From: Pyrinomonadaceae bacterium
GTDB lineage: Bacteria; Acidobacteriota; Blastocatellia; Pyrinomonadales; Pyrinomonadaceae
Direction of reading: 5' to 3'
DNA length: 33,610 nt
NCBI GenBank assembly: GCA_035275605.1
Contig: DATEMM010000461.1
Coordinates: 1-33,610, forward strand
Numbering within the stretch: the stretch's first letter is position 1; each line of letters opens with the position of its first letter. Shown piece by piece: positions 3,117 to 33,571 of this stretch. Made by a program: the position numbers and the translations under genes. The notes beneath the pieces are model-generated. The model worked only from the letters and a program-made list of their open reading frames with translations, ran no database searches and was not told where the DNA came from.

Positions 3117-3208
3117 GTCCGGAGTCTCAAAGTCTGGAGTCTGAAGTCAAAAGAAAGAGCAGCTTTTGACCAGTTGACTTCAGATTCTAAGACTCCAGAC
3201 TCCAGACT
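3117..3208. repeat. Heptamer-repeat hairpin element E1 (AGTCTGG / CCAGACT family)
   Basis: Left arm 3117-3150 has AGTCT/AGTCA recurring at 3123, 3131, 3138 and 3145. The spacer is AAAAGAAAGAGCAGCTTTTGACCAG. Right arm 3174-3208 has GACT recurring at 3176, 3183 (GATT), 3191, 3198 and 3205. The arms are imperfectly complementary, with 11 of 11 bp matching next to the spacer. The element starts directly after the rfbB stop (3114-3116) and is followed by TATATATAT and the rfbD ATG (3218). Confidence 0.9.
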
Positions 3209-3217
3209 TATATATAT

Positions 3218-4066
3218 ATGCGAATTCTGGTGACAGGAGCCGGGGGAATGGTCGGGCGCGCCGTCGTCGAGCACTGCGCGGCGCGCGAGGACGAGGTCTT
3301 GGCACACGACCGCGCCGGGCTGGACATCGCGGACGCGGCGGCCGTGCGCGCAGTCTTCGAGAAGGAGCGCCCGCAGGCCGTCATCAACTGCGCCGCGTGG
3401 ACGGATGTTGACGCGTGCCAGAGTGACAGCGAACGCTCCTTCCGAATCCACGCGCGCGGGCCTGAGAATCTGGCTATCAGCGCCCGCCACGTCGGGGCGA
3501 CGCTCGTGACGATTTCGACCGACTACGTTTTCGACGGCGCGAAGGACGGATTTTACACGCAGCGCGACGACCCCTTCCCGACGAGCGTCTACGGATTGTC
3601 GAAGCTGGAGGGCGAGCGTAGGGCGCAAAGCGCCTCTGCGCGCACCGTCGTCGTGCGCACGGGTTGGATTTTCGGGGTCGGCGGGCGAAACTTTTTAAGC
3701 CGGATAATGGAGCTGGGCCAAACCGGCGAACGCCTGAAAGCCATCGGCGACGCGTGGGGCACGCCGACTTACGCCGCGGACCTGGCCCGCCGCCTGCGGC
3801 AACTGGCCGAACTCGATCTGCCGGGCGTCTACCACGTGACCAACGCGGGCGACGGCACGAGCTACGAAGAGTTTACGCGTGAGGCGCTCGCGGCGGCCGG
3901 CCTCGACGCGGTAGAGATGGAAAGCGTCTCGATGGATTCGCTCGAAAGGCCAGCCCCGCGCCCGCGCAACTCGCGCCTGCGCTGCCTGCTGTCTGCGGCA
4001 ATAGGTCTTGAGCCGCTCCCCGACTGGCGGCTCGCGCTCAAACGTTTCGCCGCGGCCCGGAGGTGA
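3218..4066 (+). CDS. rfbD: dTDP-4-dehydrorhamnose reductase
   Basis: MRILVTGAGGMVGRAV..., VINCAAWTDVDACQ, STDYVFDG, YGLSKLEGE, and GTPTYAADLA match the RmlD/RfbD pattern over the full length (282 aa). Confidence 0.9.
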   Translation: MRILVTGAGGMVGRAVVEHCAAREDEVLAHDRAGLDIADAAAVRAVFEKERPQAVINCAAWTDVDACQSDSERSFRIHARGPENLAISARHVGATLVTISTDYVFDGAKDGFYTQRDDPFPTSVYGLSKLEGERRAQSASARTVVVRTGWIFGVGGRNFLSRIMELGQTGERLKAIGDAWGTPTYAADLARRLRQLAELDLPGVYHVTNAGDGTSYEEFTREALAAAGLDAVEMESVSMDSLERPAPRPRNSRLRCLLSAAIGLEPLPDWRLALKRFAAARR

Positions 4067-4220
4067 CGGCCCCGGCCGGGCCTCACGGTTTGCGGCCTTT
4101 CGGGCTTGGCAGATAACCCGCTTCTGATGTTATGCTTTAGCGTCTCTGTGTTGATAGTCAGGAGATGGACGGTAAGTCTCCCACCGTTATCCATCATCCT
4201 TCATTCAGGTGTAGAAAGTT

Positions 4221-6641
4221 ATGGTTTCTGAAGATAATCGCTTGCTTTCCCTCTCCGCCGTGGAGCGCGGCCTCGACCGACCCTTGAGCGACATCGCGCA
4301 GCCGAAGCCCTACGGCATTTCGCCGTCGGACCCGACGCACTTGCGCGACTACCTGTTCGTCGTCCTCAAGCGTAAGTGGCTCATCCTGACGCTCGTGCTG
4401 GTCATCACCTCGCTGGTGACGATCCAGATGTATCGCCAGCCTTCGGTTTATCAGGCGACGACGCAGATTCTGATCGAGCCGAAGAAGCAGAACATTCTGC
4501 AAGCCGGACAGGGCGTCGTCATCAACACCGGCGGCGACAAAGACCCTGCCTACTGGAACACGCAGCTCAAGCTCCTGGAGAACCCTGCGCTGGCCCGCCA
4601 GGTGATTCTGACGCTCGGACTCCATCGCGACCCCACGTTTTTCGGCTCTTCCGGGCAGACCAGCATCGGGTCTTCGCTGCGCCGCCTGATTTACGGCGAG
4701 GACCAGGCGCAGACTGCGCCCGCCCCTGCCACCAAGGTCGAAGTCGTCGGGGCCGAAGAGGTGGCGAGCGGGCAGCTCTCGCAGCAGGAGCTGGCCAAGC
4801 TACAGCCTTACGAGGACACGATGGCGGCCAACCTCTCGGTTGACCCGGTCGTCGGAACCAACCTCATCTACCTGAGCTATAAACACACCAACCCGGAACT
4901 GGCACAGAGAATCGTCAACACCTACGCCGACGCCTTCGTCTACAACAACGCCGAGCGCCAGACCACCGGCAACGAGCGGGCGCTCAAGACCGTCGGAGAA
5001 AAGATCGCGGAGCTGCAAAACAAAATCAACGTTGACGAGCAGGAGAGGTTCGCTTACGTCACCAAGCACGAACTCCCCTTTAGCGCGGCGACGCCTGGAG
5101 CGCCCGCCGCTCCCGGCTCGAACCTCCCGGCCGAACGCCTGGCGAAACTAAGCTCGTCGCTGCTTGAAGCTGAAAGCAACAGGAAGAACCTCCAATCCCT
5201 CTATGAGACCGCGGCGAAATCTACGGACCCGAACGAAATCCCGGAGGTTTCCGACAACAAGCGCATCCAGACGCTGCGCGAGAAGCTGGACACGTTGAAG
5301 CAGAAGCGTGAAGAGCTGCTCGAAGTCTACACGCAGGAATGGCCGGACGTGAAAAAGGTTGACGCGCAGATCAAGATGCTCGAAGAGTCTTTGACCAAGG
5401 CCCCGCGCGAAGTGGTGGCGGCCATGCGCGCCCGCTACGAGGCGGCGGTCGCCACGGAGAACCGGCTGCGGCAATCCTACGATTCGCAGCGCGCAGACGT
5501 ATCGGGTAAGAACCGCGCGCAGTTGGAGCTAAGCGTCATCAACCAGCGGATCGCGACCAATACGCAGTACCTCAATACGCTGATGCAGCGCCAGCAGGAG
5601 TTGGAGAACACCTTGCCGGAGTCCATGAAGAGCAACAACGTCAGCGTCACGCAGTACAGCCGGTCGGGCGTGCCGATTGGCCCGGCCCGGATGCGTAACA
5701 TCGTCATCGCGTTCCTGCTCTCGCTCGGCGTCGGCATCGGCCTCGCCTTCCTGCTCGACTACCTGGACGACACGCTGAAGTCTATCGAGGACGTGGACCG
5801 CTACATACACCTCCCGGCGCTGGCGCTGATTCCGACCAACCGTGCGGAGCGCCCGCGGCTCAAAGGCAAAGGCCCACAGGCGGCCGAGGCGGACGAATCC
5901 ACCGCCCTGGCCCTGATAGACGACGTCCGCTCGCCCATCGCCGAAGCCTACAGGCACCTGCGCACGTCGCTCCTGCTCTCTTCCGCGGGCCAGCCGCCGA
6001 AGACGATTCTGGTGACGTCGAGCCAGCCTTCCGAGGGTAAGACGACGACGGCCGTCAACACCGCCGTCATGCTGGCACAGACCGGCGCGGACGTCCTGGT
6101 CATCGACTGCGATCTGCGCCGCCCGCGCATGCACACGCACTTTAACGTGTCCAACGCCGCCGGGCTGACCAACTTCCTGTCGGGCGATTCGGACCTGGAC
6201 GCCTTGTTGCAGCCCTACGAGAAGCTGCCGAACCTGAGGCTCCTGACCTCCGGGCCGGTGCCGCCGAACCCGGCGGAGCTTTTGGGCTCAGACGAGATGC
6301 GAAAGCTCCTGAACCTGGTCGGCGACCGCTTCACGCACATCGTCATCGACTCGCCGCCGGCCATCTCGTTCACGGACGCCTCGATTCTCTCGACGATGGT
6401 TGACGGCGTGGTGCTGGTCGTTCACGGCGGGCGCAGCTCGCGCGCCATCGTGCGGCGCGCCAAGCAGCAACTGCTCGACGTCGGCGCAAACATCTTCGGC
6501 ATTGTGCTCAACAACGTCAGGCTCGAAGCCACGAATTACTACTACTACGCGGGCTACTATTCGAGCTATTACACGGACGACGAGGGCGGCGGCGCGCCGG
6601 ATGCGGCGGCAGGCGAAGGCGCGCGCGGGGCGGGTCTGTGA
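4221..6641 (+). CDS. Polysaccharide co-polymerase fused to a BY tyrosine autokinase (Wzc/GumC/EpsG-like chain-length determinant)
   Basis: 806 aa. N-terminal LRDYLFVVLKRKWLILTLVLVITSL (Wzz-type TM1), a long coiled-coil-like region and a second TM (IVIAFLLSLGVGIGLAFLL). The cytoplasmic P-loop domain has Walker A SSQPSEGKTTTAVN and VIDCDLRRP (Walker A'). The C-terminal tyrosine cluster is NYYYYAGYYSSYYTDDE. Confidence 0.9.
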   Translation: MVSEDNRLLSLSAVERGLDRPLSDIAQPKPYGISPSDPTHLRDYLFVVLKRKWLILTLVLVITSLVTIQMYRQPSVYQATTQILIEPKKQNILQAGQGVVINTGGDKDPAYWNTQLKLLENPALARQVILTLGLHRDPTFFGSSGQTSIGSSLRRLIYGEDQAQTAPAPATKVEVVGAEEVASGQLSQQELAKLQPYEDTMAANLSVDPVVGTNLIYLSYKHTNPELAQRIVNTYADAFVYNNAERQTTGNERALKTVGEKIAELQNKINVDEQERFAYVTKHELPFSAATPGAPAAPGSNLPAERLAKLSSSLLEAESNRKNLQSLYETAAKSTDPNEIPEVSDNKRIQTLREKLDTLKQKREELLEVYTQEWPDVKKVDAQIKMLEESLTKAPREVVAAMRARYEAAVATENRLRQSYDSQRADVSGKNRAQLELSVINQRIATNTQYLNTLMQRQQELENTLPESMKSNNVSVTQYSRSGVPIGPARMRNIVIAFLLSLGVGIGLAFLLDYLDDTLKSIEDVDRYIHLPALALIPTNRAERPRLKGKGPQAAEADESTALALIDDVRSPIAEAYRHLRTSLLLSSAGQPPKTILVTSSQPSEGKTTTAVNTAVMLAQTGADVLVIDCDLRRPRMHTHFNVSNAAGLTNFLSGDSDLDALLQPYEKLPNLRLLTSGPVPPNPAELLGSDEMRKLLNLVGDRFTHIVIDSPPAISFTDASILSTMVDGVVLVVHGGRSSRAIVRRAKQQLLDVGANIFGIVLNNVRLEATNYYYYAGYYSSYYTDDEGGGAPDAAAGEGARGAGL

Positions 6642-7120
6642 AGGGTGAGTTCTGTCTCATCGCGCCCGACGTGCGGCTCGGGCGCGATGTCGCCATCTAC
6701 AACTTCGTCAACCTCTACGGCTGCGAGATAGGGGATTCAACCAAGATCGGCTCGTTCGTCGAGATTCAGAAGGGCGCGCGCGTCGGGCGCAACTGTAAAA
6801 TCTCCAGCCACACCTTCATCTGCGAAGGGGTCGAAATCGAGGACGAGGTCTTCGTCGGCCACGGCGTCAACTTTATCAACGACAAATATCCGCGCGCGAC
6901 CACTGACGCCGGCCAGCTCCAGACGGAGGCCGACTGGGTGGTTGAGCGCACCGTTGTGCGGCGCGGGGCCAGCATCGGCACGAACGCGACCATCCTTGGC
7001 GGCATCGAGATCGGCGAACGCTCAATCGTCGGCGCCGGCGCGGTCGTCACCCGCGACGTCCCCCCCGGCGCAACAGTCGCGGGCAACCCGGCGAGGGTTA
7101 TTAGAAAGGATGAAGGATGA
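6638..7120 (+). CDS. Left-handed beta-helix (hexapeptide) sugar N-acetyltransferase, WbpD/WlbB-like
   Basis: 160 aa with hexapeptide repeats, ending in IGTNATILGGIEIGERSIVGAGAVVTRDVPPGATVAGNPARVI. The GTG start overlaps the upstream TGA (GTGA). Genomic context is a Gfo/Idh/MocA oxidoreductase and DegT aminotransferases. The last codons and the stop are encoded by the left arm of repeat E2. Confidence 0.8.
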   Translation: MKGEFCLIAPDVRLGRDVAIYNFVNLYGCEIGDSTKIGSFVEIQKGARVGRNCKISSHTFICEGVEIEDEVFVGHGVNFINDKYPRATTDAGQLQTEADWVVERTVVRRGASIGTNATILGGIEIGERSIVGAGAVVTRDVPPGATVAGNPARVIRKDEG

Positions 7121-7214
7121 GGGCGGAGGGATGAAAGGGGATGAGAGAAGGCGTCAAGTGAATTAATCACTCAATCGCGCTTTTACTTCATCCCTCATCC
7201 CTCCGCCCTCATCC
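7108..7214. repeat. Heptamer-repeat hairpin element E2 (GGATGAG / CTCATCC family)
   Basis: Left arm: GGATGAA(7108) GGATGAG(7115) GGCGGAG(7122) GGATGAA(7129), plus GGATGAG at 7139. Right arm: TTCATCC(7187) CTCATCC(7194) CTCCGCC(7201) CTCATCC(7208). Left 7115-7135 matches the reverse complement of the right arm at 20 of 21 positions. The spacer contains a small AGTGA-ATTAA-TCACT hairpin. The right arm ends 6 nt before ATG 7221. Confidence 0.9.
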
Positions 7215-7220
7215 CTTACT

Positions 7221-9422: not shown

Positions 9423-10544
9423 ATGAAAGTGCCGCTGCTTGATTTGCAGGCGCAGTACGACTCGATCAAAGAGGAGCTGAACTCGGCCCTCCGGCGCGTG
9501 ATGGATTCGCAGCAGTTCATCATGGGGCCGGACGTCCGCGCGCTTGAAGACGAGGTCATCTCTTACACGCACGCGCGGCACGCCATCGCCTGCGCCTCCG
9601 GGTCGGACGCGCTGCTCCTGGCCCTGATGGCCCTCGACGTCAAGGCCGATGATGAAATCATCACCACTCCCTACAGCTTCTTCGCCACGGCTGCCGCAGT
9701 CGCGCGTTTGGGTGCGCGTCCCGTCTTCGTCGATATAGAGCCGGACACTTACAACCTAGATGTCTCGAAAATCGAGGCCGCAGTGACGGAGCGCACGCGA
9801 GCCATCATGCCCGTGCATCTCTACGGCCAGTGCGCCGAGATGAACGCCATGATGGGGATAGCCGAAAGCCTCAAGCTCCCTGTCATAGAAGACGCGGCGC
9901 AGGCCATCGGCGCGACCGACGGAGCGGGGCGTCAGGCCGGCACAATCGGCGCAATCGGCTGTTTCAGTTTCTACCCGTCGAAGAATTTGGGCGCTTCGGG
10001 CGACGGCGGGATGCTGACGGCAAACGACGATGCGCTTGCCGAGCGCCTGCGTATGCTGCGCGTTCACGGGAGCACGACGAAGTACTACCACAGCCTGATC
10101 GGCATCAACAGCAGGCTGGACTCCCTACAGGCTGCGATCCTGCGCGTCAAGCTGCCGTACCTGGACAAATGGTCTGACGCTCGGCGCGCGAACGCAGAGC
10201 GCTACGACCAGCTCTTCATAGACGCGGGCCTGACCGAAGTGATAGGGCTGCCAGCCGTCCGTGACAATGTCCGCCACATCTTCAACCAGTACGTCATACG
10301 CGTGCGCGACGGGCGGCGCGACCAGCTCAGAGAACATTTGAAAGAGGAGGGCGTTGGCACAGATATTTATTACCCGGTACCTTTACACCTCCAGGAATGT
10401 TTCGCTTATCTGGATCACCGTGAGGGGGATTTTCCAGAAGCCGAGCGCGCGGCGCGCGAGACCATCGCCCTGCCCATTTATCCGGAACTGACCGCCGAGC
10501 AGCAAGGTTACGTCGTCGAATCCATCCGCGGCTTTTACGGCTGA
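9423..10544 (+). CDS. Second DegT-family PLP-dependent sugar aminotransferase
   Basis: [20 protein letters not shown]..., [34 protein letters not shown], and [23 protein letters not shown] start it at ATG 9423, which aligns with the paralogue at 7221. The track start at 9390 is a TTG that adds 11 residues. Confidence 0.88.
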
Positions 10545-13736: not shown

Positions 13737-14681
13737 ATGGACACAGCTAACAATAACTTCCCTTACAAGAAGGTCGTAGTCACGGGCGGCGCAGGCTTTC
13801 TCGGCGGCTTTCTAGTGCAGCGATTGCAGAGCTGCGAGGGCACGGAAGTCTTCGTGCCGCGCAGCCGCGACTACAACCTGGTCGAGAACGCGGATGTCAT
13901 CCGGCTGCTCGAAGAGACGCAGCCTGAGATGGTCATACACCTGGCCGCGGTCGTCGGCGGCATCGGCCACAACCAGAAAAACCCTGGGCGCTTCTTCTAC
14001 GACAACCTGATGATGGGCGCGCAGCTCATCGAGCAGTCGCGCCTGCACGGCGTCAAAAAGTTCGTCGCGCTTGGCACAGTCTGCGCGTACCCGAAGTTCA
14101 CGCCCGTGCCCTTCAAGGAAGACGACATCTGGAACGGCTACCCGGAAGAGACCAACGCGCCCTACGGCCTGGCCAAGAAGATGATGCTCGTGCAGTCGCA
14201 GAGCTATCGCGAGCAGTACGGCTTCAACTCCATCTTCCTGCTTCCCGCAAATCTCTTCGGGCCGAACGATAATTTCGACCTGGAGACCTCGCACGTCATC
14301 CCGGCCCTGATTCGCAAGTGCATCGAAGCCAGGCGTGCGGGCGCTCCCTACATAGAAGCCTGGGGCTCGGGCGGCGTTTCGCGCGAGTTCCTCTACGTGG
14401 AGGACTGCGCCGAAGGGATTCTGCGCGCGGCCGCCGGCTATGACGAGAGCGCGCCGGTCAATCTGGGCAACGGGCGCGAGGTGATGATTCGCGACTTGGT
14501 CGAGCTGATCGTGAAGCTGACCCGCTTCGAGGGCGAAATCCGTTGGCAGCCGAGCAGGCCGGACGGGCAGCCGCGTCGCCGCCTGGACGTCTCACGCGCC
14601 CAGGAGAAATTCGGCTTCACCGCCCGCACTTCCCTCGAAGACGGCCTGCGGCGAACCATTGACTGGTACGAAAGGCAGTAG
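13737..14681 (+). CDS. fcl: GDP-L-fucose synthase (GDP-4-keto-6-deoxymannose 3,5-epimerase/4-reductase)
   Basis: [81 protein letters not shown], and [26 protein letters not shown]. The start is uncertain between ATG 13707 and ATG 13737. The track start at 13653 is a non-ATG extension. Confidence 0.9.
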
Positions 14682-14778
14682 TCGGTGGTCAGTGGTCAGT
14701 GGTCAGTTAAAAGAAAGACCATCAACCGCGCCGCGCTTTTGTTTTCACTGACCACCGACCACCGACTACTGACCACTG
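14682..14778. repeat. Heptamer-repeat hairpin element E3 (GTGGTCA / TGACCAC family)
   Basis: Left arm: GTGGTCA at 14685, 14692 and 14699. Spacer: TTAAAAGAAAGACCATCAACCGCGCCGCGCTTTTGTTTTCAC. Right arm: TGACCAC(14749) CGACCAC(14756) CGACTAC(14763) TGACCAC(14770). It begins directly after the fcl stop (14679-14681) and ends 4 nt before ATG 14783. Confidence 0.92.
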
Positions 14779-14782
14779 CTTT

Positions 14783-15658
14783 ATGAAACTCAGCATCGTC
14801 ACCCCCTCCTTCAATCAGGGAAAGTTCCTGGAGCAGACCATCCAGTCCGTGCTCACGCAGGACTACCCGGACGTCGAGTACATCATTATTGACGGCGGAA
14901 GCACGGACGAGAGCATAGAGGTTATCAGGAAGTACGAAAAGCACCTGGCCTACTGGGTCAGCGAGAAGGACGCGGGTCAGGCGCACGCCATCAACAAGGG
15001 ATTGAAGAGGGCGACCGGCGACGTCTTCGCTTTCATCAACAGCGACGACCTCTACCTGCCGGGGGCGTTCCGCGCCGTCGTCGAGCACTTCCGCCGGAAT
15101 CCTTCCTGCGAATGGCTCTGCGGCGAGACGCTGCTCTTCGGCCCGGAGCGGCAGACTGAGCTGGCTCCGACGCGCGTGCCGAAGACGGCGGCGCACGCGC
15201 TCTCCTGGGCCTACGCGGCGGCGCAGCCGGGCATGTTCTGGAAGCGAGACATCCTGGGCGAAGGGTTGCAGGAGCGCTGGCGCTACTGCTTTGACAACGA
15301 GTTGTACGCGCGCCTGCTTGTTCGCGGGCACAAGTGCGAGCACCTGCCTGTGCCAGTCGCGGCCTACCGCTATCACGAGACGAGCAAGACGGTCGCCGAG
15401 GGCGAGCTGTTCGACCGCGAGTTCGACCAGATCACGGAGATGTACCAGAAGGAGTTGAAAGGCTCGCAGCGGCGCTGGACGCTCGGCACGCTTCTTTTAA
15501 GACGCTCTTACATGGCGAGCCAGACGGGCGATTCCAGGGCTTCCGCGAAGTATCTGCTGCGCTCGCTGATGGTTCACCCGGAGGGAATCGTCAGCCGTCC
15601 GTTCTGGGGCTGTTTTCGCAGGACGCTCAAGAGCGGTCTCGCTCCGCGCAGCAACTGA
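14783..15658 (+). CDS. Family 2 glycosyltransferase
   Basis: [44 protein letters not shown]..., [23 protein letters not shown]. Paralogue of the partial gene at 1..659. Confidence 0.88.
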
Positions 15659-21446: not shown

Positions 21447-22163
21447 ATGAGCAAGCTGCGGCTGATAGATTTGGCGCTCATCGCCCTGCTCCCGTCCTTT
21501 CTCAAGCGCGCCTGCTATCGCCTCTTCTACCGCTACAAGATCGGCAAGGGCGTGCGCATCGGGCTGAGCATCATTGACGCGCGCGAGTGCGTCATCGAGG
21601 ACGACGTTCGGATAGGCCACCTGAACTTCTTCGTCGGCGTCGGGAAGCTGAGCATAGGGGATCACGCGCGCATCGGGCACCTGAACATTTTTCGCGGCGG
21701 CGATGAGATACGCCTCGGGCGCTACGTCGAGATTATACGGATGAACCAGATCAACTCGATTCCGGAGCCGGAGGTGGTCAACCCGGTCGAGCCGCGCTTT
21801 CTGCTCGGCGACGGGAGCGTGATTACGACCGGGCACAAGATAGATTTTACGGACAAGGTCGAGATCGGGCGGCGCACTATCTTAGGCGGGCGCAACTCCT
21901 CTTTGTGGACGCACAACCGGCAGCGGACGCTTCCCATCAGGATCGGGTCAATGGCCTACATCGGCTCTGAGATTCGCATCGCCCCCGGCGGCGCGATTCC
22001 TTCGCGCTCGATTGTCGGCATCGGGGCCGTGATTACTAAACCGCTGACCGAGGAGCTGCACTTAATCGGCGGCGTCCCGGCCAAACCGATTAAGCCGCTC
22101 AGCCAGGAGGACCGTTTCCTGATCGAGCACAGAACCCGGCCCGACCTGCCGGACGACATTTGA
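21447..22163 (+). CDS. Hexapeptide-repeat (LbH) acyltransferase, probable sugar O-acetyltransferase
   Basis: IGKGVRIGLSIIDARECVIEDDVRIGHLNFFVGVGKLSIGDHARIGHLNIFRGGDEIRLGRYVEI... and IGSEIRIAPGGAIPSRSIVGIGAVITKPL..LIGGVPAKPI. The start is uncertain. ATG 21447 (MSKLRLIDLALIALL) gives a typical size, ATG 21345 is possible, and track start 21240 overlaps the previous gene by 128 nt. Confidence 0.75.
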   Translation: MSKLRLIDLALIALLPSFLKRACYRLFYRYKIGKGVRIGLSIIDARECVIEDDVRIGHLNFFVGVGKLSIGDHARIGHLNIFRGGDEIRLGRYVEIIRMNQINSIPEPEVVNPVEPRFLLGDGSVITTGHKIDFTDKVEIGRRTILGGRNSSLWTHNRQRTLPIRIGSMAYIGSEIRIAPGGAIPSRSIVGIGAVITKPLTEELHLIGGVPAKPIKPLSQEDRFLIEHRTRPDLPDDI

Positions 22164-22167
22164 AAAG

Positions 22168-22270
22168 CAGGAGCCAGGAGCCAGGAGTCAGAAGTCAGAA
22201 TAAAAGGCGGAGAACCACTTTCACAGACTTTCTTTTATTCTGGCTCCTGAATTCTGACTTCTGAATTCTG
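22168..22270. repeat. Heptamer-repeat hairpin element E4 (CAGGAGC/CAGAAGT family)
   Basis: Left arm: CAGGAGC(22168) CAGGAGC(22175) CAGGAGT(22182) CAGAAGT(22189) CAGAATA(22196). Spacer: AAAGGCGGAGAACCACTTTCACAGACTTTCTTTT. Right arm: ATTCTGG(22237) CTCCTGA(22244) ATTCTGA(22251) CTTCTGA(22258) ATTCTG(22265). It begins 4 nt after the upstream stop (22161-22163) and ends 9 nt before ATG 22280. Confidence 0.9.
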
Positions 22271-22279
22271 CCGTTAAGT

Positions 22280-23659: not shown

Positions 23660-23660
23660 C

Positions 23661-27342: not shown

Positions 27343-27820
27343 GGAGTTCAAAAAGGGGGCCATCACGGGCGTCCGCGTTAGCAGCTTGCGCAAGTTCGTG
27401 GACGAGCGCGGCTGGCTGGCAGAGCTTTTCCGCCACGACGAGATGGAGGAAGAGTTTTATCCGGTGATGTCCTACATCTCCCTGACCGAGCCTGGGCACC
27501 AGCGCGGCCCGCACGAGCATGAGGAACAGGCGGACGTGTTCTGCTTCATCGGCCCCTCGAACTTCAAGCTGCGGCTGTGGGACAACCGTGCGGATTCGGA
27601 GACCTATAACCACCTGATGACGCTCTTCGTCGGCGCGGACAACCCGCAATCGGTGCTTGTGCCCGCAGGCGTCGTCCACGCCTACCGCAACGTCGGGAGC
27701 ACGCCCGGCGTCGTCATCAACTGCCCGAACCGCCTCTACATGGGCCAGAACCGCCGCGAAGAGATTGACGAGATCAGGCACGAGGACGACCCGGAGACCG
27801 TGTTCAGGATAGACGATTAG
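27314..27820 (+). CDS. rfbC: dTDP-4-dehydrorhamnose 3,5-epimerase-like cupin
   Basis: From ATG 27314: MQSKSAPSAREFKKGAITGVRVSSLRKFVDERGWLAELFRHD..., RGPHEH, and VLVPAGVVHAYRNVG, an RmlC-type cupin pattern. It overlaps rfbA by 29 nt. Track start 27233 is an out-of-context extension inside rfbA. Confidence 0.7.
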   Translation: MQSKSAPSAREFKKGAITGVRVSSLRKFVDERGWLAELFRHDEMEEEFYPVMSYISLTEPGHQRGPHEHEEQADVFCFIGPSNFKLRLWDNRADSETYNHLMTLFVGADNPQSVLVPAGVVHAYRNVGSTPGVVINCPNRLYMGQNRREEIDEIRHEDDPETVFRIDD

Positions 27821-27900
27821 AAGTGGTCAGTGGTCAGTGGCCAGTGGTCAGTTAAAAGCTGATTTCTCACTGACCACTGACCACTGACCACCGACCACTG
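27821..27900. repeat. Heptamer-repeat hairpin element E5 (GTGGTCA / TGACCAC family, same as E3)
   Basis: Left arm: GTGGTCA(27823) GTGGTCA(27830) GTGGCCA(27837) GTGGTCA(27844). Spacer: GTTAAAAGCTGATTTCTCAC. Right arm: TGACCAC(27871) TGACCAC(27878) TGACCAC(27885) CGACCAC(27892). There are about 2 mismatches across a roughly 30 bp stem, the most perfect hairpin of the set. It starts directly after the TAG (27818-27820) and ends 3 nt before ATG 27904. Confidence 0.95.
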
Positions 27901-27903
27901 TTC

Positions 27904-29259
27904 ATGAAAGTTGTTCGCATCATCGCCCGGCTCAACGTCGGGGGGCCGGCGCGTCACGTCGTGTGGCTCACCAGCGGGCTCGAAGGCGCGGAGTTTCAGT
28001 CCGTGCTCGTCGCGGGCGTGGTGCCGCCCGGTGAAGACGACATGGGCTACTTCGCCGCCGAGCACGGCGTCACCCCGCACGTCATCCCCGAGATGAGCCG
28101 CGAGATTTCGCCCAAGGACGCCGTCACCGTCTGGAAGCTCTACCGGCTGCTCAAACGTGTGCGCCCGGACGTCGTCCACACACACACCGCGAAGGCCGGG
28201 ACCGTCGGCAGAGTCGCCGGGTTCTTCTATCGCTGGCTCACGCCCTCAACTCTCTGGGGACGCCCGCGCCGCTGCCGCTTCGTGCACACTTATCACGGCC
28301 ACATTTTTCACAGCTACTACGGGCCTTTGAAGACGCGCCTCTTTCTCCTGATCGAAAAAATCCTGGCCCGCCTCGCGACCGACCGGATAATCGTCATCAG
28401 CCCGCAGCAGCGCCGAGAGATTCACGAAGAGTTCGGGGTGGGGCGCGCGCGCCAGTTCCGCGTCATCCCGCTCGGACTGGACACGAGCGCGTTTGCGAAT
28501 GCCGAGAAGCGCCGGCATGTCCTGCGCGGCGAGTTGAATCTGGGCGAAGAAGATATACTGGTCGGCATCGTCGGACGGCTAACAGAGGTCAAGAACCACA
28601 TGCTCTTTATCGAGGCGGCCGCGCGCTACAAAGAAAGTTTCGGGACGGTGAGCAACGGGCGGCGCGTCCTCTTCGTCGTCATAGGGGACGGGCACCTGCG
28701 CACGAAGTTGGAGAAGCAGGCCCGCGAACTCGGAATCATCGGAGAAGTCAGATTCCTGGGGACGCGCGGCGACTCGGAGAACTTCTACCCGGCGCTCGAC
28801 GTGGTGGCCCTGACTTCGCTCAACGAGGGGACGCCGCTGACGCTGATCGAGGCGATGGCGAACGCGCGCCCTTTGATTGCCACAAAGGTCGGCGGCGTGG
28901 TTGACTTACTCGGTCAAAGAGAGCGCTTAGATTTAGGAGAGGGCGAGGGGCCTGCCGGTTTCGAGCTTTACGAGCACGGCGTAGGGGTTCGTCCGAACGA
29001 CGCCGCAGCTTTCAGCGAAGGGCTCGCGCACCTGGTCTTAGCCGCAGATGCCCGGCGCGCGATGGGCGAGCGCGGGCGAGGCTTCGTCGAAAGAAACTAC
29101 TCTAAAGACCGCCTGCTCGCGGATGTTAAGAATCTCTACCGCGAGCTGGCCAAAGAAAAGTCTGGAGAGTCTGAAGTCTGGAGTCTCGAGTCAAAAACGG
29201 AAACCAGTTCTTTATCTTCTGACTCCAGACTCCAGACTCCGGACTCCAGACTTCAATAA
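27904..29259 (+). CDS. GT4-family glycosyltransferase, with a C-terminal tail encoded by repeat E6
   Basis: MKVVRIIARLNVGGPARHVVWL..., GIVGRLTEVKNHMLFIEAA, and VVALTSLNEGTPLTLIEAMANARPLIATKVGGVVDLL (E-x7-E). The homology-like part ends near ...NLYRELAKEK. The last ~33 codons (SGESEVWSLESKTETSSLSSDSRLQTPDSRLQ) translate the heptamer element. Confidence 0.85.
   Translation: MKVVRIIARLNVGGPARHVVWLTSGLEGAEFQSVLVAGVVPPGEDDMGYFAAEHGVTPHVIPEMSREISPKDAVTVWKLYRLLKRVRPDVVHTHTAKAGTVGRVAGFFYRWLTPSTLWGRPRRCRFVHTYHGHIFHSYYGPLKTRLFLLIEKILARLATDRIIVISPQQRREIHEEFGVGRARQFRVIPLGLDTSAFANAEKRRHVLRGELNLGEEDILVGIVGRLTEVKNHMLFIEAAARYKESFGTVSNGRRVLFVVIGDGHLRTKLEKQARELGIIGEVRFLGTRGDSENFYPALDVVALTSLNEGTPLTLIEAMANARPLIATKVGGVVDLLGQRERLDLGEGEGPAGFELYEHGVGVRPNDAAAFSEGLAHLVLAADARRAMGERGRGFVERNYSKDRLLADVKNLYRELAKEKSGESEVWSLESKTETSSLSSDSRLQTPDSRLQ
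29158..29254. repeat. Heptamer-repeat hairpin element E6 (AGTCTGG / CCAGACT family, same as E1)
   Basis: Left arm has AGTCT at 29159, 29168, 29175 and 29182, and AGTCA at 29189. Spacer: AAAACGGAAACCAGTTCTTTATCTTCT. Right arm has GACT at 29221, 29228, 29235, 29242 and 29249 (TCTGACT CCAGACT CCAGACT CCGGACT CCAGACT). It lies inside the 3' end of the GT4 ORF, whose stop is at 29257-29259. Confidence 0.92.
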
Positions 29260-29275
29260 AAGGGGAGCTAACAAT

Positions 29276-30241: not shown

Positions 30242-30279
30242 GCTCAAAGGCCCCGCTTCCTTTTTATGGAGGTGAAGAG

Positions 30280-30696: not shown

Positions 30697-30805
30697 CTGA
30701 TTAATGGCTAGCCGCTGACAGGCGCTTTCATGTTTGCGTGGAACGTGGAGCCCACGACCTCATTAGCTGGTAGAGAAAGTGATCGAGGAGTAAACTATTG
30801 CCACT

Positions 30806-31048
30806 ATGAGCGCCTTGAGAGCTTACGAAGAAGTCATCGAATTCATTGCCGCCGGAACCAGCCCGCAGAATGTCGTGGCCTTCCGCCCGTCAGAAAGCGC
30901 GAAGGAGCGTGTGGCAGACCTGATTCAACGTGAAAAAACGGACTATCTTTCACCGGATGAGAAGTCCGAGTTGGAGCACTACCTGCAACTGGAGCACCTG
31001 ATGAGACTGGCGAAAGCACGCGCCCGTCTCTATATTGCTAATGAGTAG
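30806..31048 (+). CDS. Small helical protein of unknown function, partner of the downstream HNH nuclease (antitoxin/immunity-like candidate)
   Basis: 80 aa, MSALRAYEEVIEFIAAGTSPQNVVAFRPSESAKERVADLIQREKTDYLSPDEKSELEHYLQLEHLMRLAKARARLYIANE. Its stop (31046-31048) overlaps the HNH start (ATGAGTAG). It lies in a low-G+C island. From memory, the C-terminal YLQLEHLMRLAKARA-type motif recurs in small orphan proteins of cyanobacteria and other phyla. I could not verify this here. Confidence 0.6.
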   Translation: MSALRAYEEVIEFIAAGTSPQNVVAFRPSESAKERVADLIQREKTDYLSPDEKSELEHYLQLEHLMRLAKARARLYIANE

Positions 31049-31478
31049 GTATCTTAGCGCAGAGACTCGGCAGAAGGTTGCGGCCCGCGCAGATTTCCTT
31101 TGTGAATATTGCTTAATTGCCGAAGAAGACACGTTCTTTGGCTGTGAAGTTGAGCATATCATCAGCCTCAAACACAGTGGCTCCTCAGACCCGGACAATC
31201 TGGCATACGCTTGTGCTTTCTGTAACCGGCATAAGGGGAGTGATGTCGGGTCGGTTTCTGAATCCGGCGAGTTCAGCAGGTTTTTTAATCCGCGGGCGGA
31301 TAAGTGGGCAGACCATTTTCAATTGAATGGCGTGTTTATTCAGCCCTTGACGATTATCGGTGAAGTCACGTCGCGAATTCTACAATTTAATAATGGCGAT
31401 CAAATCCTGGAACGACAGGCATTGAAAGCAGTCGAAAGATATCCGAGCAAGGCAGCGTTAATGCGCATTGAAGGATAA
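31041..31478 (+). CDS. HNH endonuclease-family protein
   Basis: MSRYLSAETRQKVAARADFLCEYCLIAEEDTFFGCEVEHIISLKHSGSSDPDNLAYACAFCNRHKGSD contains CxxC...EH...N...CxxCNxHK, the zinc-finger HNH core. My hand count of its first 120 nt gives 57 G+C (47.5 percent), far below the surrounding genes. Confidence 0.8.
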   Translation: MSRYLSAETRQKVAARADFLCEYCLIAEEDTFFGCEVEHIISLKHSGSSDPDNLAYACAFCNRHKGSDVGSVSESGEFSRFFNPRADKWADHFQLNGVFIQPLTIIGEVTSRILQFNNGDQILERQALKAVERYPSKAALMRIEG

Positions 31479-31618
31479 CCACGCCACCTCGTGGCATCCG
31501 GGCTGCCCCCCCATGCCAGCACCGCTCACACTCCGCCGCTTGATTTGTCGTCTCTAATCGAATAGGGTTTTCCGGGTAAGCTAACAAATCCAATTGCTCT
31601 GCTGCCGTAAGTAGGGTC

Positions 31619-33457
31619 ATGCCTTTTAAGCCGATATACCTGATTCCGGTCGCCGCGTCGTTTGTCCTGGCGCTCGTCCTGACGCCGACGGTGCGCGCGC
31701 TGGCGCGGCGCTGGAAGATCGTCGCCAAGCCGAAGAGCGACCGCTGGCACAAGAAGCCGACGGCGATGCTCGGCGGCGTCGCCATTTTTCTCTCGGTCGC
31801 CACGGTCCTCGTTCTCTACCTCTTCGTCGTCCCGCCCAGGCCCGACGAAATTCTGAACCACGACCGCGACTACCTCTGGGTCGTTCTCGGCGCGAGCGCC
31901 TTTCTCTTCGCGGTCGGGCTGGCCGACGACCTCTATCATGCGAAGCCCTACCAGAAACTCATAGGGCAGATCATGGGCGCGGCCTTCGTCATCTACTACG
32001 GACTGACTTTGCCCTGGACCGGGTCGGCCCCCGTCAACATGGTGATTACCATCTTCTGGCTGATCGGAATCACCAACGCCATTAACCTGCTCGACAACAT
32101 GGACGGGCTCGCTTCCGGGATCGCGGCCATCTCTTCGATCTTCCTGGCTTTGAGCTTCCTGGCCAGCTCGCAGCCGACAGAGGCGCTGGCGCTCGCGGTC
32201 TTCGCCGCCGCGCTCGTTGGCTTCCTGGTCTACAACTCGAACCCGGCCTCAATCTTCATGGGCGACTGCGGCTCCATGTTCATAGGGTTCTTTCTGGCCA
32301 GCACGTCTTTGATGAGCGCGGCCCAGGGCGGGCGCTCGCGCAGCTTCCTGCCAGTGCTGGCCGTGCCGATTCTGATTCTCTTCATCCCGATCTTCGACAC
32401 GACGCTCGTGACAGTGCTCCGCAAACTTTCTGGGCGCTCGGTGCGCGTCGGAGGGCGTGACCACGCCTCGCACCGTCTGGTGGCATTGGGCATGTCGGAG
32501 CGGCGCGCGGTCTGGATGCTCTACGGCTTTGCCGGATTCTCTGGGCTGATCGCGCTGCTCGTGCGCGAGGCGAAACTTGACGTCAGCCTCGCGGCCATCG
32601 GCGGCTTCACAGTCCTGCTCACGCTGCTCGGGGTTTATCTGGCGGGCGTCAAAGTCTACGACGAGGATGAGGCGAAGGCGGCGCGCGAAAAACCGCTCTT
32701 CGCGTTCCTGGTCGATCTCTCATACAAGCGGCGCGTCTTCGAGGTGATGCTAGACGTCCTGCTGATTATTTTCGCTTACTACGGCTCCTACGTTTTAAGA
32801 TTCGGGCCGATGGAATCGAGCGGCGCGTGGCGCGTCTTTCTGCGCACGCTCCCCGTCCTGGTCTTCGTCAAGATGGCTGCGTTCCTGGCGGTCGGCGTTT
32901 ACCGCGGCATCTGGCGTTACACGAGCGTGGACGACCTAGTCGTCTTCGCAAAAGCCGTCGTGCTCGGGTCGGTCGCGAGCCTGCTGGCGATTCTCTTTGC
33001 GTTCCGCTTCGAGGGCGTCTCGCGCACGGTCTTCATCGTGGACGCGATTTTGCTGTTCATGCTGCTGGCCGGGAGCCGTATGGCCTTCCGGCTCTTCCGC
33101 AAGCTCCTTCCGACGCAGGCCCCGCGCGACGGCTGCCGCGTCCTGATTTACGGCGCGGGCGACGGCGGCGAACTGCTCCTGCGCGAGATGCAGAACAACA
33201 GGGACTTGCAGTACGCGCCCGTCGGCTTCGTGGACGACGACCCGAACAAGAAGGGCAAGGTCATACACGGCCTGCGCGTCTTCGGCGGCAACGGGTCCCT
33301 GCGCGCCATCTGCCGGGAGCAGCGCGTGGACGAGGTGCTCATCTCCAGCTCGCGCTTTCCCCCCGAGCGCGTCGCGGAAATCCTGAGCGACTGCCGCGAA
33401 GCGCAGGTCACGCTCAAGCGCATGTTGATTAGAATCGAAGACGTCAGCGACGAGTAA
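31619..33457 (+). CDS. Polyprenyl-phosphate HexNAc-1-phosphate transferase (WecA/MraY family) fused to a CapD/WbpM/WbaP-type TM plus Rossmann-like module
   Basis: N-terminal ~330 aa: LADDLYHAKPYQKL, NAINLLDNMDGLASG, IFMGDCGSMFIGFFLA, and IPIFDTTLVTVLRKL...GGRDHASHRL, the WecA/MraY motifs. C-terminal ~240 aa (from about nt 32700): RRVFEVMLDVLLIIFAYYGSYVLRF..., GVYRGIWRYTSVDDL, SRTVFIVDAILLFMLLAGSRMAFRL, and RVLIYGAGDGGELLLREMQNNRDLQYAPVGFVDDDPNKKGKVIHGLRVFG. This is the pattern normally found at the N-terminus of CapD/WbpM dehydratases and WbaP-type phosphoglycosyl transferases. Confidence 0.85.
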   Translation: MPFKPIYLIPVAASFVLALVLTPTVRALARRWKIVAKPKSDRWHKKPTAMLGGVAIFLSVATVLVLYLFVVPPRPDEILNHDRDYLWVVLGASAFLFAVGLADDLYHAKPYQKLIGQIMGAAFVIYYGLTLPWTGSAPVNMVITIFWLIGITNAINLLDNMDGLASGIAAISSIFLALSFLASSQPTEALALAVFAAALVGFLVYNSNPASIFMGDCGSMFIGFFLASTSLMSAAQGGRSRSFLPVLAVPILILFIPIFDTTLVTVLRKLSGRSVRVGGRDHASHRLVALGMSERRAVWMLYGFAGFSGLIALLVREAKLDVSLAAIGGFTVLLTLLGVYLAGVKVYDEDEAKAAREKPLFAFLVDLSYKRRVFEVMLDVLLIIFAYYGSYVLRFGPMESSGAWRVFLRTLPVLVFVKMAAFLAVGVYRGIWRYTSVDDLVVFAKAVVLGSVASLLAILFAFRFEGVSRTVFIVDAILLFMLLAGSRMAFRLFRKLLPTQAPRDGCRVLIYGAGDGGELLLREMQNNRDLQYAPVGFVDDDPNKKGKVIHGLRVFGGNGSLRAICREQRVDEVLISSSRFPPERVAEILSDCREAQVTLKRMLIRIEDVSDE

Positions 33458-33460
33458 GGC

Positions 33461-33571
33461 GGATTTTAGATTTTAGATTTTAGATTTGCGATTGGATAAG
33501 GATTAAAAATTTTTAGATTCAAGTTCTTGTCCTTGTCCAATCAAAAATCAAAAATCGCAAATCAAAAATTC
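33461..33571. repeat. Heptamer-repeat hairpin element E7 (GATTTTA / AAAAATC family, AT-rich)
   Basis: Left arm: GATTTTA at 33462, 33469 and 33476, GATTTGC(33483), GATTGGA(33490). Spacer: TAAGGATTAAAAATTTTTAGATTCAAGTTCTTGTCCTTG. Right arm: TCCAATC(33536) AAAAATC(33543) AAAAATC(33550) GCAAATC(33557) AAAAATT(33564). It starts 4 nt after the TAA at 33455-33457. Confidence 0.9.

Follow-up and report, generated by a model that had tools for sequence, protein, structure and literature searches.

The window, by which we mean the whole stretch of 33,610 nucleotides analysed here, contains seven long imperfect hairpins (E1-E7), every one of which has both arms made of tandem heptamers and lies at a junction between protein-coding genes that both read on the + strand. 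On balance, we favour the view that these are ORF-less members, selfish or near-neutral, of a superfamily of tandem-heptamer palindromes whose full form is IVS-like and carries a PF05635 gene.

Seven heptamer hairpins in stop-to-start spacers

A sequence-only reading of this DNA had placed seven heptamer hairpins in it. All of them are present, within a few bases of where it put them, and it was also correct about their locus-specific units, low G+C, high density and resemblance to the STRR repeats of cyanobacteria. The elements, read on the + strand, are as follows (MFE, RNA folding energy in kcal/mol; z, against dinucleotide shuffles).

E1, 3114-3210: 5' arm at about 3114-3150 with AGTCCGG, AGTCTGG and AGTCTGA; inner AAAAG..CTTTT and loop between the arms; 3' arm at about 3174-3210 with CCAGACT; upstream stop TAA at 3114-3116 forming the first base pairs of the stem, next ATG at 3218; MFE -49.4 on +, z -8.6.
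E2, 7105-7217: 5' arm at 7105-7135, GGATGAA GGATGAG GGCGGAG GGATGAA; loop of 51 nt; 3' arm at 7187-7217; TGA of the upstream ORF at 7118-7120, within the left arm, next ATG at 7221; MFE -69.4, z -9.5.
E3, 14672-14782: 5' arm CAGTAGT CGGTGGT CAGTGGT CAGTGGT, followed by TTAAAAG...CTTTT and loop; 3' arm with ACTGACC ACCGACC; stop TAG at 14679-14681 inside the first unit, ATG at 14783 abutting the stem; MFE -59.5, z -8.2.
E4, 22167-22271: 5' arm units CAGGAGC and CAGAAGT; loop core AAGGCGGAGAACCACTTTCACAGACTTTCTTTT; 3' arm units CTCCTGA and ATTCTGA; stop TGA at 22161-22163, ATG at 22280; MFE -47.5, z -5.0.
E5, 27822-27899: 5' arm of four AGTGGTC; loop TTAAAAGCTGATTTCTCA; 3' arm of four CTGACCA; stop TAG at 27818-27820, ATG at 27904; MFE -54.0 on +, -64.7 on -.
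E6, 29158-29255: 5' arm units AGTCTGG and AGTCTGA; loop AAAAACGGAAACCAGTTCTTTATCTTCT; 3' arm of repeated GACTCCA; within the 3' end of the ORF at 27904-29259, which reads through it, and followed by Shine-Dalgarno-like AAGGGGAG and a TTG start at 29276; MFE -50.7, z -5.7.
E7, 33461-33571: 5' arm of repeated GATTTTA plus GCGATTGG; inner stem GGATAAGGA..TCCTTGTCC; 3' arm of repeated AATCAAA; stop TAA at 33455-33457, putative GTG start at about 33578; MFE -39.1, z -6.7.

The stems are 30-45 bp long, the loops 16-51 nt, and five unit types serve the seven junctions. Tandem Repeats Finder assigns period 7 to every arm of E1-E7, E2 being the most degenerate (73-81% matches). The + strand folds at -39 to -69 kcal/mol with z between -5.0 and -9.5, no shuffle folds as well as the real element, and the - strand gives similar values. 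It is clear that a fold is maintained. One detector, applied to periods 5 to 8, gave 10 arrays in the window, all of them of period 7. In a further comparison, 14 arrays and 6 pairs were observed in the window, against a mean of 0.99 arrays and no paired element in 200 first-order Markov simulations searched with the identical detector. The spacers have 44.5% G+C and the window 61.5%. The Rfam search that had been suggested gave no match at gathering threshold, and no rRNA was found in the window; the sub-threshold matches on elements concern E2 and E7 only, to models of eukaryotic microRNA precursors and snoRNAs.

The hairpins fill the stop-to-start spacers of neighbouring genes. In E1 and E3 the 5' foot of the stem contains the upstream stop codon, in E2 the left arm contains it, and in E1-E5 the downstream start codon follows the stem by 1-9 nt. 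Among 126 co-directional cases, pairing begins at a median of -5 nt relative to the end of the stop codon, and the start codon comes a median of 11 nt after pairing ends. By a noisy classifier, which mis-scores some known co-directional cases, 118 of 143 classifiable elements are co-directional; some hairpins are seen at convergent gene ends. The sequence-only reading rightly had all seven at +/+ junctions, but the absence of hairpins from the minus-strand block, which it also noted, carries no statistical weight, because that block has only two internal junctions.

Distribution and turnover in other loci

Hairpins with heptamer stems occur in more than 118 loci from Acidobacteriota, Planctomycetota, Chloroflexota, Gemmatimonadales (Gemmatimonadota), Binatia and other groups, and also on a plasmid of Deinococcus (Deinococcota). 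Paired elements of period 7 number 219 in these loci, while periods 5, 6 and 8-11 give 1-7. The period-7 elements draw on 49 units, among them those of E4 and E7 and one that differs from that of E2 by a single base. Families, defined by unit plus loop core, are scattered across genomes, and the same combination is seen at non-orthologous sites and in different genomes; the loop core of E4, for example, appears again in named Acidobacteriota loci, where it is joined to the same type of arm. Loops in a single genome differ widely and are not near-identical copies, so no recent burst from a master copy has taken place. In 87 out of 102 elements G exceeds C in the 5' arm, and this holds on either strand.

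At orthologous junctions, hairpins have been gained, lost or exchanged for another family, some sites being empty and some holding degenerate remnants. Four families occupy the E5 site across relatives, and two loci whose flanks are about 95% identical (L048 and L118) differ by a clean family swap. Empty sites have spacers of 13-22 nt. Comparison of filled with empty sites places the insertion between the stop codon and the Shine-Dalgarno sequence or start, with no evident duplication, and repeat copy number differs between relatives. For the hairpins we identified neither a target-site duplication nor a mechanism of transposition, nor any enzyme that would mobilise them.

These comparisons bear on the argument, made in the sequence-only reading, that covariation of the two arms points to a selected fold. 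Different units at different loci do not amount to covariation at homologous positions. Variant units are mirrored between arms no more than in unit-shuffled controls, the sense strand is no better at folding than the antisense strand (49 against 66) and has no G-U advantage, and at orthologous junctions whole elements are replaced, not compensated. One case, the pair L018 and L066, shows a unit change on both arms (AGTGATG vs AGGGATG). The strand polarity then proposed is not supported either: in its AAAAG...CTTTT signature we see, for the most part, the stem continued as a palindrome, but GTGGTCA-class loops do have a mild sense-strand bias (TAAAA 21 vs TTTTA 6; ACTG 24 vs CAGT 8; counts uncorrected for multiple tests).

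Could the hairpins be host-selected RNA elements in cis, neither selfish nor mobile, that protect upstream mRNA from 3' exonucleases or couple translation in the manner of REP/BIME? Their tight and reproducible placement between stop and start would suit such a role, as would the closeness of start codons to the stem (0-9 nt) in a genome where Shine-Dalgarno sites are few, the mild polarity of the GTGGTCA-class loops, the case of a both-arm change and the proposals of transcript stability or translational coupling made for STRR hairpins (PMC2670836). We nevertheless judge it unlikely. Close relatives have orthologous junctions that are empty, filled by unrelated families or reduced to remnants, which is the opposite of conservation; the folding and mirroring results above speak against it as well, and the same families recur at unrelated junctions and around PF05635 genes.

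Rather improbable, in our estimate, is an origin in place at the DNA level, in which slippage favouring 7-nt units and intrastrand template switching build elements that act as cruciforms, nucleoid-protein sites or gyrase sites. That period 7 alone is favoured fits this idea, and the literature, citing Mrazek 2007, ascribes heptamer over-representation to slippage. The strand symmetry of the elements, their A+T-rich centres, which would favour cruciform extrusion, and the variation of copy number between relatives and between Coxiella strains are also in its favour. At first sight, the units at the E6 site appear to have been seeded from local E-L codons (GAATTG), but GAATTGC recurs at a second junction of the same contig and is a common unit in Nostoc, where GAATTGC arrays match 18 plasmids, and local seeding is thereby weakened. 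Formation in place is further at odds with the recurrence of the same unit and loop core at non-orthologous sites and in different genomes and with clean family swaps between identical flanks, and slippage alone predicts neither the G-rich-first chirality nor the association with PF05635.

Intrinsic terminators or attenuators are very improbable: the hairpins are stable, lie at gene ends (some of them convergent) and in some cases have short T-rich tails (CTTT) after the 3' arm or A-rich sequence before the 5' arm, but a terminator scan calls none of the seven because they lack a U-tract, the 30-45 bp stems are far longer than those of terminators, the large majority are co-directional by the count above, and downstream genes begin 0-25 nt past the stem, too near for a promoter to fit in between.

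Heptamer arms around PF05635 genes

PF05635 (TIGR02436) is a small four-helix-bundle protein, also called S23p or IVS protein. All 17 PF05635 genes that we examined, from 8 phyla and with their Pfam and NCBIfam assignments confirmed, are bordered on either side by heptamer arrays, which in most cases are inverted. The C-rich arm is the upstream one in three of the 17 cassettes, and another three have a complex layout, each side bearing several arrays or entire hairpins. Two Bacteroidota plasmids have a period-7 background of only 3-5 arrays per 50 kb, the strongest of which abut the PF05635 gene.

The arms of E2 align with those around the PF05635 genes of three loci (L220, L219 and L216) in the common order GATGAA-GGCGGAG-GGATGAA, and judging from this alignment the two sets of arms are homologous. 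E1 and E6 resemble the cassette arms of L203 (unit AGTCGGA), and E7 those of L210 (unit GATTTTA), at the level of the unit only. Further, one Pyrinomonadaceae contig carries an ORF-less hairpin and a PF05635 cassette at adjacent junctions, and PF05635 proteins about 70% identical are found in phyla that have the hairpins. A Pfam scan found no PF05635 among the ORFs of the window that it covered, and hmmsearch found none in 1.6 Mb of hairpin-rich loci, a set gathered before the PF05635 loci themselves. The link therefore consists of arm homology and shared taxonomy, not of adjacency in this genome, and as the loops of E1-E7 hold no PF05635 ORF, these elements could only be ORF-less derivatives. 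Alternatively, the PF05635 gene could be a cargo that inserts into pre-existing hairpins, and not their parent.

If the reading that we favour is right, heptamer arms would bracket a PF05635 gene in the full form, and the window would hold a form that lacks the gene, much like a miniature (MITE-like) derivative for which the PF05635 cassette is a candidate autonomous form. Elements would survive only where insertion is harmless, in the gaps of a few bases that separate a stop codon from the following start within co-directional clusters, and there they would be gained, lost, lengthened by slippage of 7-nt units and exchanged for other families. We propose that the neighbouring genes may be translated undisturbed, because the feet of the hairpin keep the stop codon near the start that follows. 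Transcribed within operon mRNA, each element would be expected to fold into a near-perfect double-stranded RNA stem of 30-45 bp, which, by analogy with IVS stems, RNase III probably cuts. Such a cut would split the polycistronic mRNA between cistrons, and the stem remnants may protect the new mRNA ends.

Comparison with known heptamer and palindromic repeats

The superfamily that we envisage would take in the STRR hairpins of cyanobacteria, the inverted GGGAATC pairs of Xanthomonas and the terminal stems of 23S rRNA IVS. More tentatively, these and the present hairpins may form one unrecognised class of mobile element, in which the PF05635 (S23p, Avd-like) protein acts on the stems, in mobility or processing, and operon mRNAs are punctuated via RNase III. 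If so, its full form would be a PF05635 gene within inverted tandem-heptamer arms and its abundant short form an ORF-less hairpin.

The sequence-only reading knew of no description of paired-arm heptamers, but STRR, the Xanthomonas GGGAATC pairs (PMC4692102) and the Coxiella IVS (PMC4990558) all precede this one. STRR repeats are tandem 7-nt units, intergenic and dispersed, with many unit types per genome, and they form hairpins between co-transcribed genes, as between hupS and hupL in cyanobacteria (PMC2670836). The intergenic repeats of Nostoc PCC 7120 include ccactgactactgac, attgcgaattg and ttgtcagttgtcag, which match the E3/E5 unit and the units of the relatives L129, L123 and L149; ccactgac/ctactgac, attgcgaattg and ttgtcag, listed for the same strain, are identical units. 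Accounts of STRR, however, deal chiefly with direct arrays and treat them as a peculiarity of cyanobacteria, the host being a heterocyst-forming one, whereas E1-E7 lie in the DNA of a probably acidobacterial soil organism with the high G+C given above and the same families occur in Acidobacteriota and other phyla. High G+C had been taken to set this genome apart from the STRR kind; heptamer hairpins turn out to occur in many G+C-rich phyla. In the searchable literature, the description of STRR does not include systematic paired arms, the stop/start geometry, the G-first chirality or the PF05635 link.

The IVS of 23S rRNA with an S23p/PF05635 ORF (Coxiella, Leptospira) likewise have terminal inverted repeats, with a stem of about 28 bp against 30-45 bp in E1-E7. 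In Coxiella, GACAGAT heptamers, which vary in copy number, lie on the 5' side of a 28-bp terminal stem, adjoining the start of the ORF; the loop encodes S23p, and cuts by RNase III have been mapped to the stem (PMC4990558). Unlike them, E1-E7 have no ORF and lie in mRNA spacers, not in helix 25/45 of 23S rRNA.

In Xanthomonas, GGGAATC heptamers form 70-75 convergent inverted pairs per genome, mostly conserved in position between two species but changed in length (Rehm et al. 2015, PMC4692102). Like ours, these arrays are strongly over-represented in intergenic DNA, can form stem-loops or cruciforms and have the G-rich arm first (PMC4692102); they differ in having a single dominant unit, read as G-quadruplex-forming, while most of the present units are unable to form G-quadruplexes. 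Xanthomonas has a PF05635 protein, Xcc0516 (PMC3936711).

The REP/BIME/REPIN elements of proteobacteria are also abundant extragenic palindromes within operons and at gene ends, with several families per genome; the termini of both kinds can supply stop codons, and mRNA stabilisation has been proposed for both. Their stems, however, are not tandem arrays, and they carry GTAG or CGTC tags, many with a RAYT transposase; in our hairpins GTAG arises solely from a TAG stop that runs into the unit (E3 and some relatives), and neither tag is general. Heptamer-stem hairpins were thus already known from cyanobacteria, Xanthomonas and rRNA intervening sequences, and what the present elements add is the wide range of phyla, the filling of stop-to-start spacers, the G-rich 5' arm, the turnover at orthologous junctions and the flanks of PF05635 genes.

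Seven heptamer hairpins in a polysaccharide biosynthesis cluster

Family assignments of its ORFs make the window a cluster for polysaccharide biosynthesis, encoding sugar-nucleotide dehydratases and epimerases, RmlD, DegT aminotransferases, a Wzz/tyrosine-kinase-like protein, many glycosyltransferases, an asparagine synthase and a priming transferase. We re-read each of the seven stretches in which a reading of the sequence alone had placed tandem-heptamer hairpins (E1-E7), and the architecture was present in all of them: three to five tandem heptamers form the 5' arm, an A+T-rich centre follows, and reverse-complement heptamers make up the 3' arm.

Heptamer hairpins of the window (+ strand coordinates), with arm unit and RNA MFE in kcal/mol on each strand
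E1, 3114-3210: AGTCTGG; + strand -49.4, - strand -46.5
E2, 7105-7217: GGATGAG; + strand -69.4, - strand -70.8
E3, 14672-14782: GTGGTCA; + strand -59.5, - strand -61.5
E4, 22167-22271: CAGGAGC/CAGAAGT; + strand -47.5, - strand -42.9
E5, 27822-27899: GTGGTCA; + strand -54.0, - strand -64.7
E6, 29158-29255: AGTCTGG; + strand -50.7, - strand -58.0
E7, 33461-33571: GATTTTA; + strand -39.1, - strand -30.3

These elements are the longest matches of an inverted-repeat finder, with arms of 30-45 nt that are 76-89% complementary, except for E7, where it recovered just a 17-nt core (94% complementary). Tandem Repeats Finder gave a period of 7 in both arms of all seven, and the RNA folds of the + strand had z-scores of -5.0 to -9.5. 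A period scan of the window detected 10 arrays of period 7 and none of period 5, 6 or 8; with the detector used on the simulations, the real window had 14 arrays and 6 pairs, compared with a mean of 0.99 arrays and no pairs in 200 Markov simulations. The spacers are poorer in G+C than the window (44.5% vs 61.5%); the sequence-only reading had noticed that the elements have less G+C than the coding DNA. Scanning the window against Rfam gave no match at or above the gathering threshold; the sub-threshold matches on the elements, all to microRNA-precursor and snoRNA models, were judged spurious. Since the identical sequence is present in two independent public assemblies, the elements are not an assembly artefact. 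Both contigs (L001, L002) end inside or just after E7, and heptamer hairpins do fragment short-read assemblies.

Each of the seven takes up nearly the entire gap between two + strand genes. The stop codon of the upstream gene lies inside the 5' foot of the stem in E1 and E3, within the left arm in E2 (ORF 6638-7120), and 1-5 nt ahead of the stem in E4, E5 and E7. The glycosyltransferase ORF 27904-29259 has no stop ahead of E6 and stays open across the entire hairpin, gaining ~34 residues (..KSGESEVWSLESKTETSSLSSDSRLQTPDSRLQ*); its orthologues stop shortly past a conserved LY.EL motif. On the other side, the next start codon is found 1-9 nt downstream of the stem in E1-E5. A recognisable Shine-Dalgarno sequence is absent at most gene starts of the window, being clear only at 26578, 29276 and 30280. 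Overlaps of 4 nt occur in several of the predicted gene pairs. An HNH endonuclease ORF (31035-31478) and an 80-aa ORF without family lie in a stretch with a G+C content of only 47-55% (30700-31600), flanked by a SnoaL-like gene and a priming glycosyltransferase; this stretch may be a separate insertion.

A class of hairpins in stop-to-start spacers

One genome per species was scanned for the exact pattern GTGGTCAGTGGTCAG, a gap of 10-40 nt and CTGACCACTGACCAC, which yielded at least 118 loci. Among the matches listed are Acidobacteriota (many Pyrinomonadaceae, Thermoanaerobaculia), Planctomycetota (Gemmataceae), Chloroflexota, Gemmatimonadales, Binatia, one deltaproteobacterium and one Oscillospiraceae MAG. 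An unannotated hairpin of GTGGTCA type is also carried by plasmid pDAETH-1 of Deinococcus aetherius, a cultured and annotated organism, between ABC-transporter substrate-binding and permease genes (L202, 1498-1567), and could provide an experimental handle. In 880 kb from the matches listed we counted 219 paired hairpins of period 7, and 1, 2, 7, 5, 2 and 2 of periods 5, 6, 8, 9, 10 and 11, respectively. Apart from the unit used as bait, these loci hold 86 elements with 48 other units, including GATTTTA (as in E7), CAGGAGT (E4) and GATGAGT, one base off the GGATGAG of E2. Heptamer hairpins are a large, multi-family class and not an oddity of the window, and E1-E7 belong to this widespread class of heptamer-stem palindromes in dispersed families. 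The element families that the window shares with other loci suggest an acidobacterial host; the named loci by themselves were uninformative about its taxonomy.

The class sits in stop-to-start spacers. In 126 co-directional cases, pairing began at a median of -5 nt relative to the end of the upstream stop (interquartile range -9 to +3), and the downstream start came a median of 11 nt after the last paired base (range 3-24); the median span was 93 nt and the median MFE -55 kcal/mol. Because the GC3-based classifier of flanks mislabels some known co-directional cases, our claim concerns the large co-directional majority and not a depletion at divergent junctions. Elements of the GTGGTCA class often have the stop merged with their first unit (TAGTGGTCAG or CAGTAGTCAG), and their last unit is 0-8 nt away from the ATG that comes next. 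Loops are family-specific: GTGGTCA arms enclose TTAAAA(A/G)CTGATT.. or ..GACGACTGGC.. loops, and CAGGAGY and CAGAATC arms, E4 included, a loop core of AAGGCGGA(G/A)AACC.CTTC..ACAGA.

A feature newly described here is the fixed G-first chirality of the class. Among the 102 non-bait elements, G exceeds C in the 5' arm of 87 (p = 2e-13), and the same holds for 50 of 60 distinct units. None of the units was found in both arrangements, and the G-rich arm comes first in each of the window elements. Since this arrangement reads alike on both DNA strands, it is independent of the direction of transcription. Overall loop composition showed no polarity across the class; GTGGTCA-class loops have a mild, uncorrected sense bias (TAAAA 21 vs TTTTA 6, ACTG 24 vs CAGT 8). 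Selection on the sense-strand RNA through G-U pairs was considered and rejected (sense better in 49, antisense in 66, p = 0.07), and register-specific mirroring of variant units between arms was not in excess over unit-shuffled controls. TGA/TCA is enriched in the units (32 of 60, with 15.9 expected); the idea of arrays as stop-codon cassettes in all frames was discarded, as stop codons taken together show no enrichment and both TAA and TAG occur less often than expected.

Orthologous junctions were compared as well. The epimerase encoded downstream of E6, used to scan metagenomes, gave 80 loci with orthologues 69-91% identical. At the junction orthologous to that of E6, the relatives' units are GAATTGC, AATTGAA, CCGAAGT (clearly related to E6), GCAAAGG, GCACAAA and GGGCGAG; elsewhere there are degenerate remnants or an unrelated REP-like palindrome, and in some relatives the junction is empty and the stop overlaps the Shine-Dalgarno sequence of the next gene. 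Rare hairpins of the same design at this junction (L154 ~9930-9990, L178, L190) have units of 8 nt (AGGAGGCC) or 9 nt (GACTTATAG), the 8-mer hairpin with its C-rich arm first. Two loci (L141 ~9890-9990, L123 ~4630-4730) hold there a pair of GACAAACTTTAGTTTGTC-type hairpins, a different palindromic repeat, so palindromic elements of more than one kind collect in this spacer. At the site of E5, the unit is GTGGTCA in the window and of GATTGCC type in three relatives; one further relative has GATTTTG and another GAATTGC. At a third junction four families occur among five relatives, with the hairpin in every case between stop and Shine-Dalgarno sequence, and other relatives have empty spacers of 13-22 nt. 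Two close Acidobacteriota whose flanks are ~95% identical carry at the same site CAGAAGT arms with a GGCGGAAACC core and CAGTGGT arms with a AAAACTGATT loop, respectively, and another pair differs by one identical base change in every unit of both arms (AGTGATG vs AGGGATG). The junctions thus turn over fast, by gain, loss, replacement and unit-level homogenisation, and do not conserve a site-specific structure. Local seeding of units from the flanking E-L codons GAATTG at the E6 site, suggested at first by their sequence, is weakened, because the contig concerned has GAATTGC at a second junction too and the unit is common in Nostoc.

PF05635 genes enclosed by heptamer arms

Similar arms, homologous in the case of E2, enclose genes of PF05635 (S23p / TIGR02436 / 23S rRNA intervening sequence, IVS, protein) in eight phyla. 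The starting case was a Nostoc plasmid match beside a "four helix bundle protein" gene with inverted GAATTGC arrays on both sides, and PF05635 loci were then gathered as homologues at decreasing identity.

PF05635 loci with heptamer arrays
Nostoc punctiforme pNPUN01: (GTCGGAG)n, PF05635 gene, (CGACTTC)n
Aulosira, Anabaena cylindrica, Pseudanabaena, Planktothrix: other cyanobacterial plasmid cassettes
Ca. Chlorohelix, plasmid locus one: (ATGAAGG)n, PF05635 gene, (TCATAAT)n
Ca. Chlorohelix, plasmid locus two: complete GATTTTA hairpins flanking the PF05635 gene on both sides
Treponema saccharophilum: plasmid cassette
Bernardetia plasmid: GATTAGT x15 upstream of the PF05635 gene, reverse complement downstream
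Chondrinema: plasmid cassette in an RND operon, with the adaptor gene on one side and the permease gene on the other
Three Acidobacteriota (one Pyrinomonadaceae), one Planctomycetota, Chlorobaculum, Desulforhopalus: genome or metagenome loci, retrieved with proteins ~70% identical to the Chlorohelix protein

Heptamer arrays lie on both flanks of all 17 PF05635 genes examined, with the G-rich arm upstream in 11, the opposite order in 3 and a complex arrangement in 3, and the upstream array usually includes the start codon, e.g. (GATGAAT)n ATG. All ten proteins tested were assigned to PF05635, and all four tested against NCBIfam to TIGR02436; PDB 2rld is a homologue. Avd, an accessory protein of diversity-generating retroelements, is a relative of the family. 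Within 50 kb around each Bacteroidota PF05635 gene there are just 3 and 5 period-7 arrays, the strongest adjoining the gene. The 1.6 Mb of hairpin-rich loci fetched before the PF05635 loci contained no PF05635 homologue. The contigs of two cassettes (L215, L217) end, like those of the window sequence, in heptamer arrays. The Bernardetia plasmid (L214) has, in addition to its GATTAGT-armed cassette, a direct (TAACTGA)n array at 2252-2285; this heptamer has been reported for Beggiatoaceae, cyanobacteria and a few Bacteroidetes.

Both arms of E2, in the order GATGAA-GGCGGAG-GGATGAA, match in alignment A2 the arms around the PF05635 genes of L220, L219 and L216, and L216 has an ORF-less hairpin in the junction neighbouring its cassette. 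The E2 loop (7136-7186) opens right after the left arm with ATGAGAGAAGGCGTCAAGTGA, that is, ATG, five further codons and TGA. The position of this ATG matches that of the start codon in PF05635 cassettes, and the mini-ORF may be the remnant of an internally deleted ORF.

PF05635 has been reported inside CRISPR-Cas operons, e.g. between cmr3 and cmr2. We found the gene between cas2 and cas1 (L205), upstream of cas1 (L211), and, in a restriction/defence-like setting, between a helicase and DUF4391 or a methylase (L206, L219, L220), in every case with heptamer arrays at its borders. The linkage with cas genes may reflect insertion into intercistronic spacers, not function.

Interpretation and relation to known repeats

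We infer that the window elements are ORF-less derivatives of PF05635 cassettes, which would have spread or been exchanged. Their chirality would be inherited from the cassette, whose upstream arm bears a purine-rich, ATG-containing translation-start sequence. The operon transcript would then hold double-stranded RNA stems of 30-45 bp, and RNase III, by analogy with IVS stems, would probably cut them and split the mRNA between cistrons. It is pure speculation that transcribing the G-rich arm first might keep the C-rich arm from ever being exposed as a Rho loading site.

A regulatory hairpin selected by the host would suit the precise stop-to-start placement; set beside the turnover at orthologous junctions, we regard it as unlikely, and a selfish element may have been co-opted by the host as well. 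We give slightly less credit to slippage in place with a role at the DNA level: among the long simple repeats of bacteria, heptamers stand out as the most over-represented, which has been explained by slippage, but here a given unit returns with its loop core at sites that are not orthologous, also in different genomes. A transcription terminator is very improbable, as a terminator scan found none of the seven elements to resemble an intrinsic terminator, with no U-tracts.

If STRR (the tandem heptamer repeats of cyanobacteria), 23S rRNA IVS and PF05635 are aspects of a single class of elements, three long-standing puzzles merge into one system that can be tested, operon mRNA maps of hard-to-study soil phyla need revision, and the presence of PF05635 in CRISPR-Cas/defence operons is simply explained by insertion into intercistronic spacers. 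Recognising heptamer hairpins would also aid metagenome assembly, which breaks at them, and their stems could be natural modular intercistronic processing sites. What makes the elements worth pursuing is PF05635 as a unifying lead, together with their chirality and their distribution across phyla.

STRR were described in 1990 and 23S rRNA intervening sequences in 1990-93; to our knowledge, neither these nor PF05635 / S23p / TIGR02436 have an accepted function or origin. Vioque reportedly placed STRR within helix P12 of cyanobacterial RNase P RNA in 1997. The sequence-only reading had likened the arrays to STRR and considered the paired-arm heptamer architecture undescribed. Its interpretation is borne out in part. 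The resemblance holds, down to shared units: the Nostoc PCC 7120 intergenic repeats ttgtcagttgtcagttgtca, ccactgactactgac and attgcgaattg are units of E3/E5 and of the window's relatives, and the GAATTGC arrays of metagenome locus L129 match 18 Nostoc and 2 Trichormus plasmids. The architecture, however, was already known, both from STRR heptamer hairpins of several cyanobacteria, notably in the hupS-hupL spacer, where transcript stability or translational coupling was suggested (PMC2670836), and from Xanthomonas, where each genome has GGGAATC arrays in 70-75 convergent inverted pairs (PMC4692102). In the literature we found no account of heptamer-arm hairpins outside cyanobacteria and Xanthomonas and no paper that generalises the heptamer-PF05635 association, and a string search with the GTGGTCA array returned irrelevant primer matches only. 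The S23p / IVS family PF05635 includes Xanthomonas Xcc0516 (PMC3936711). The Coxiella IVS has a 28-bp terminal stem and variable-copy GACAGAT heptamers beside the S23p start, with RNase III cleavage mapped in the stem (PMC4990558). The window hairpins are heptamer hairpins of the STRR / IVS type; neither such a host nor such a density had been described for them.
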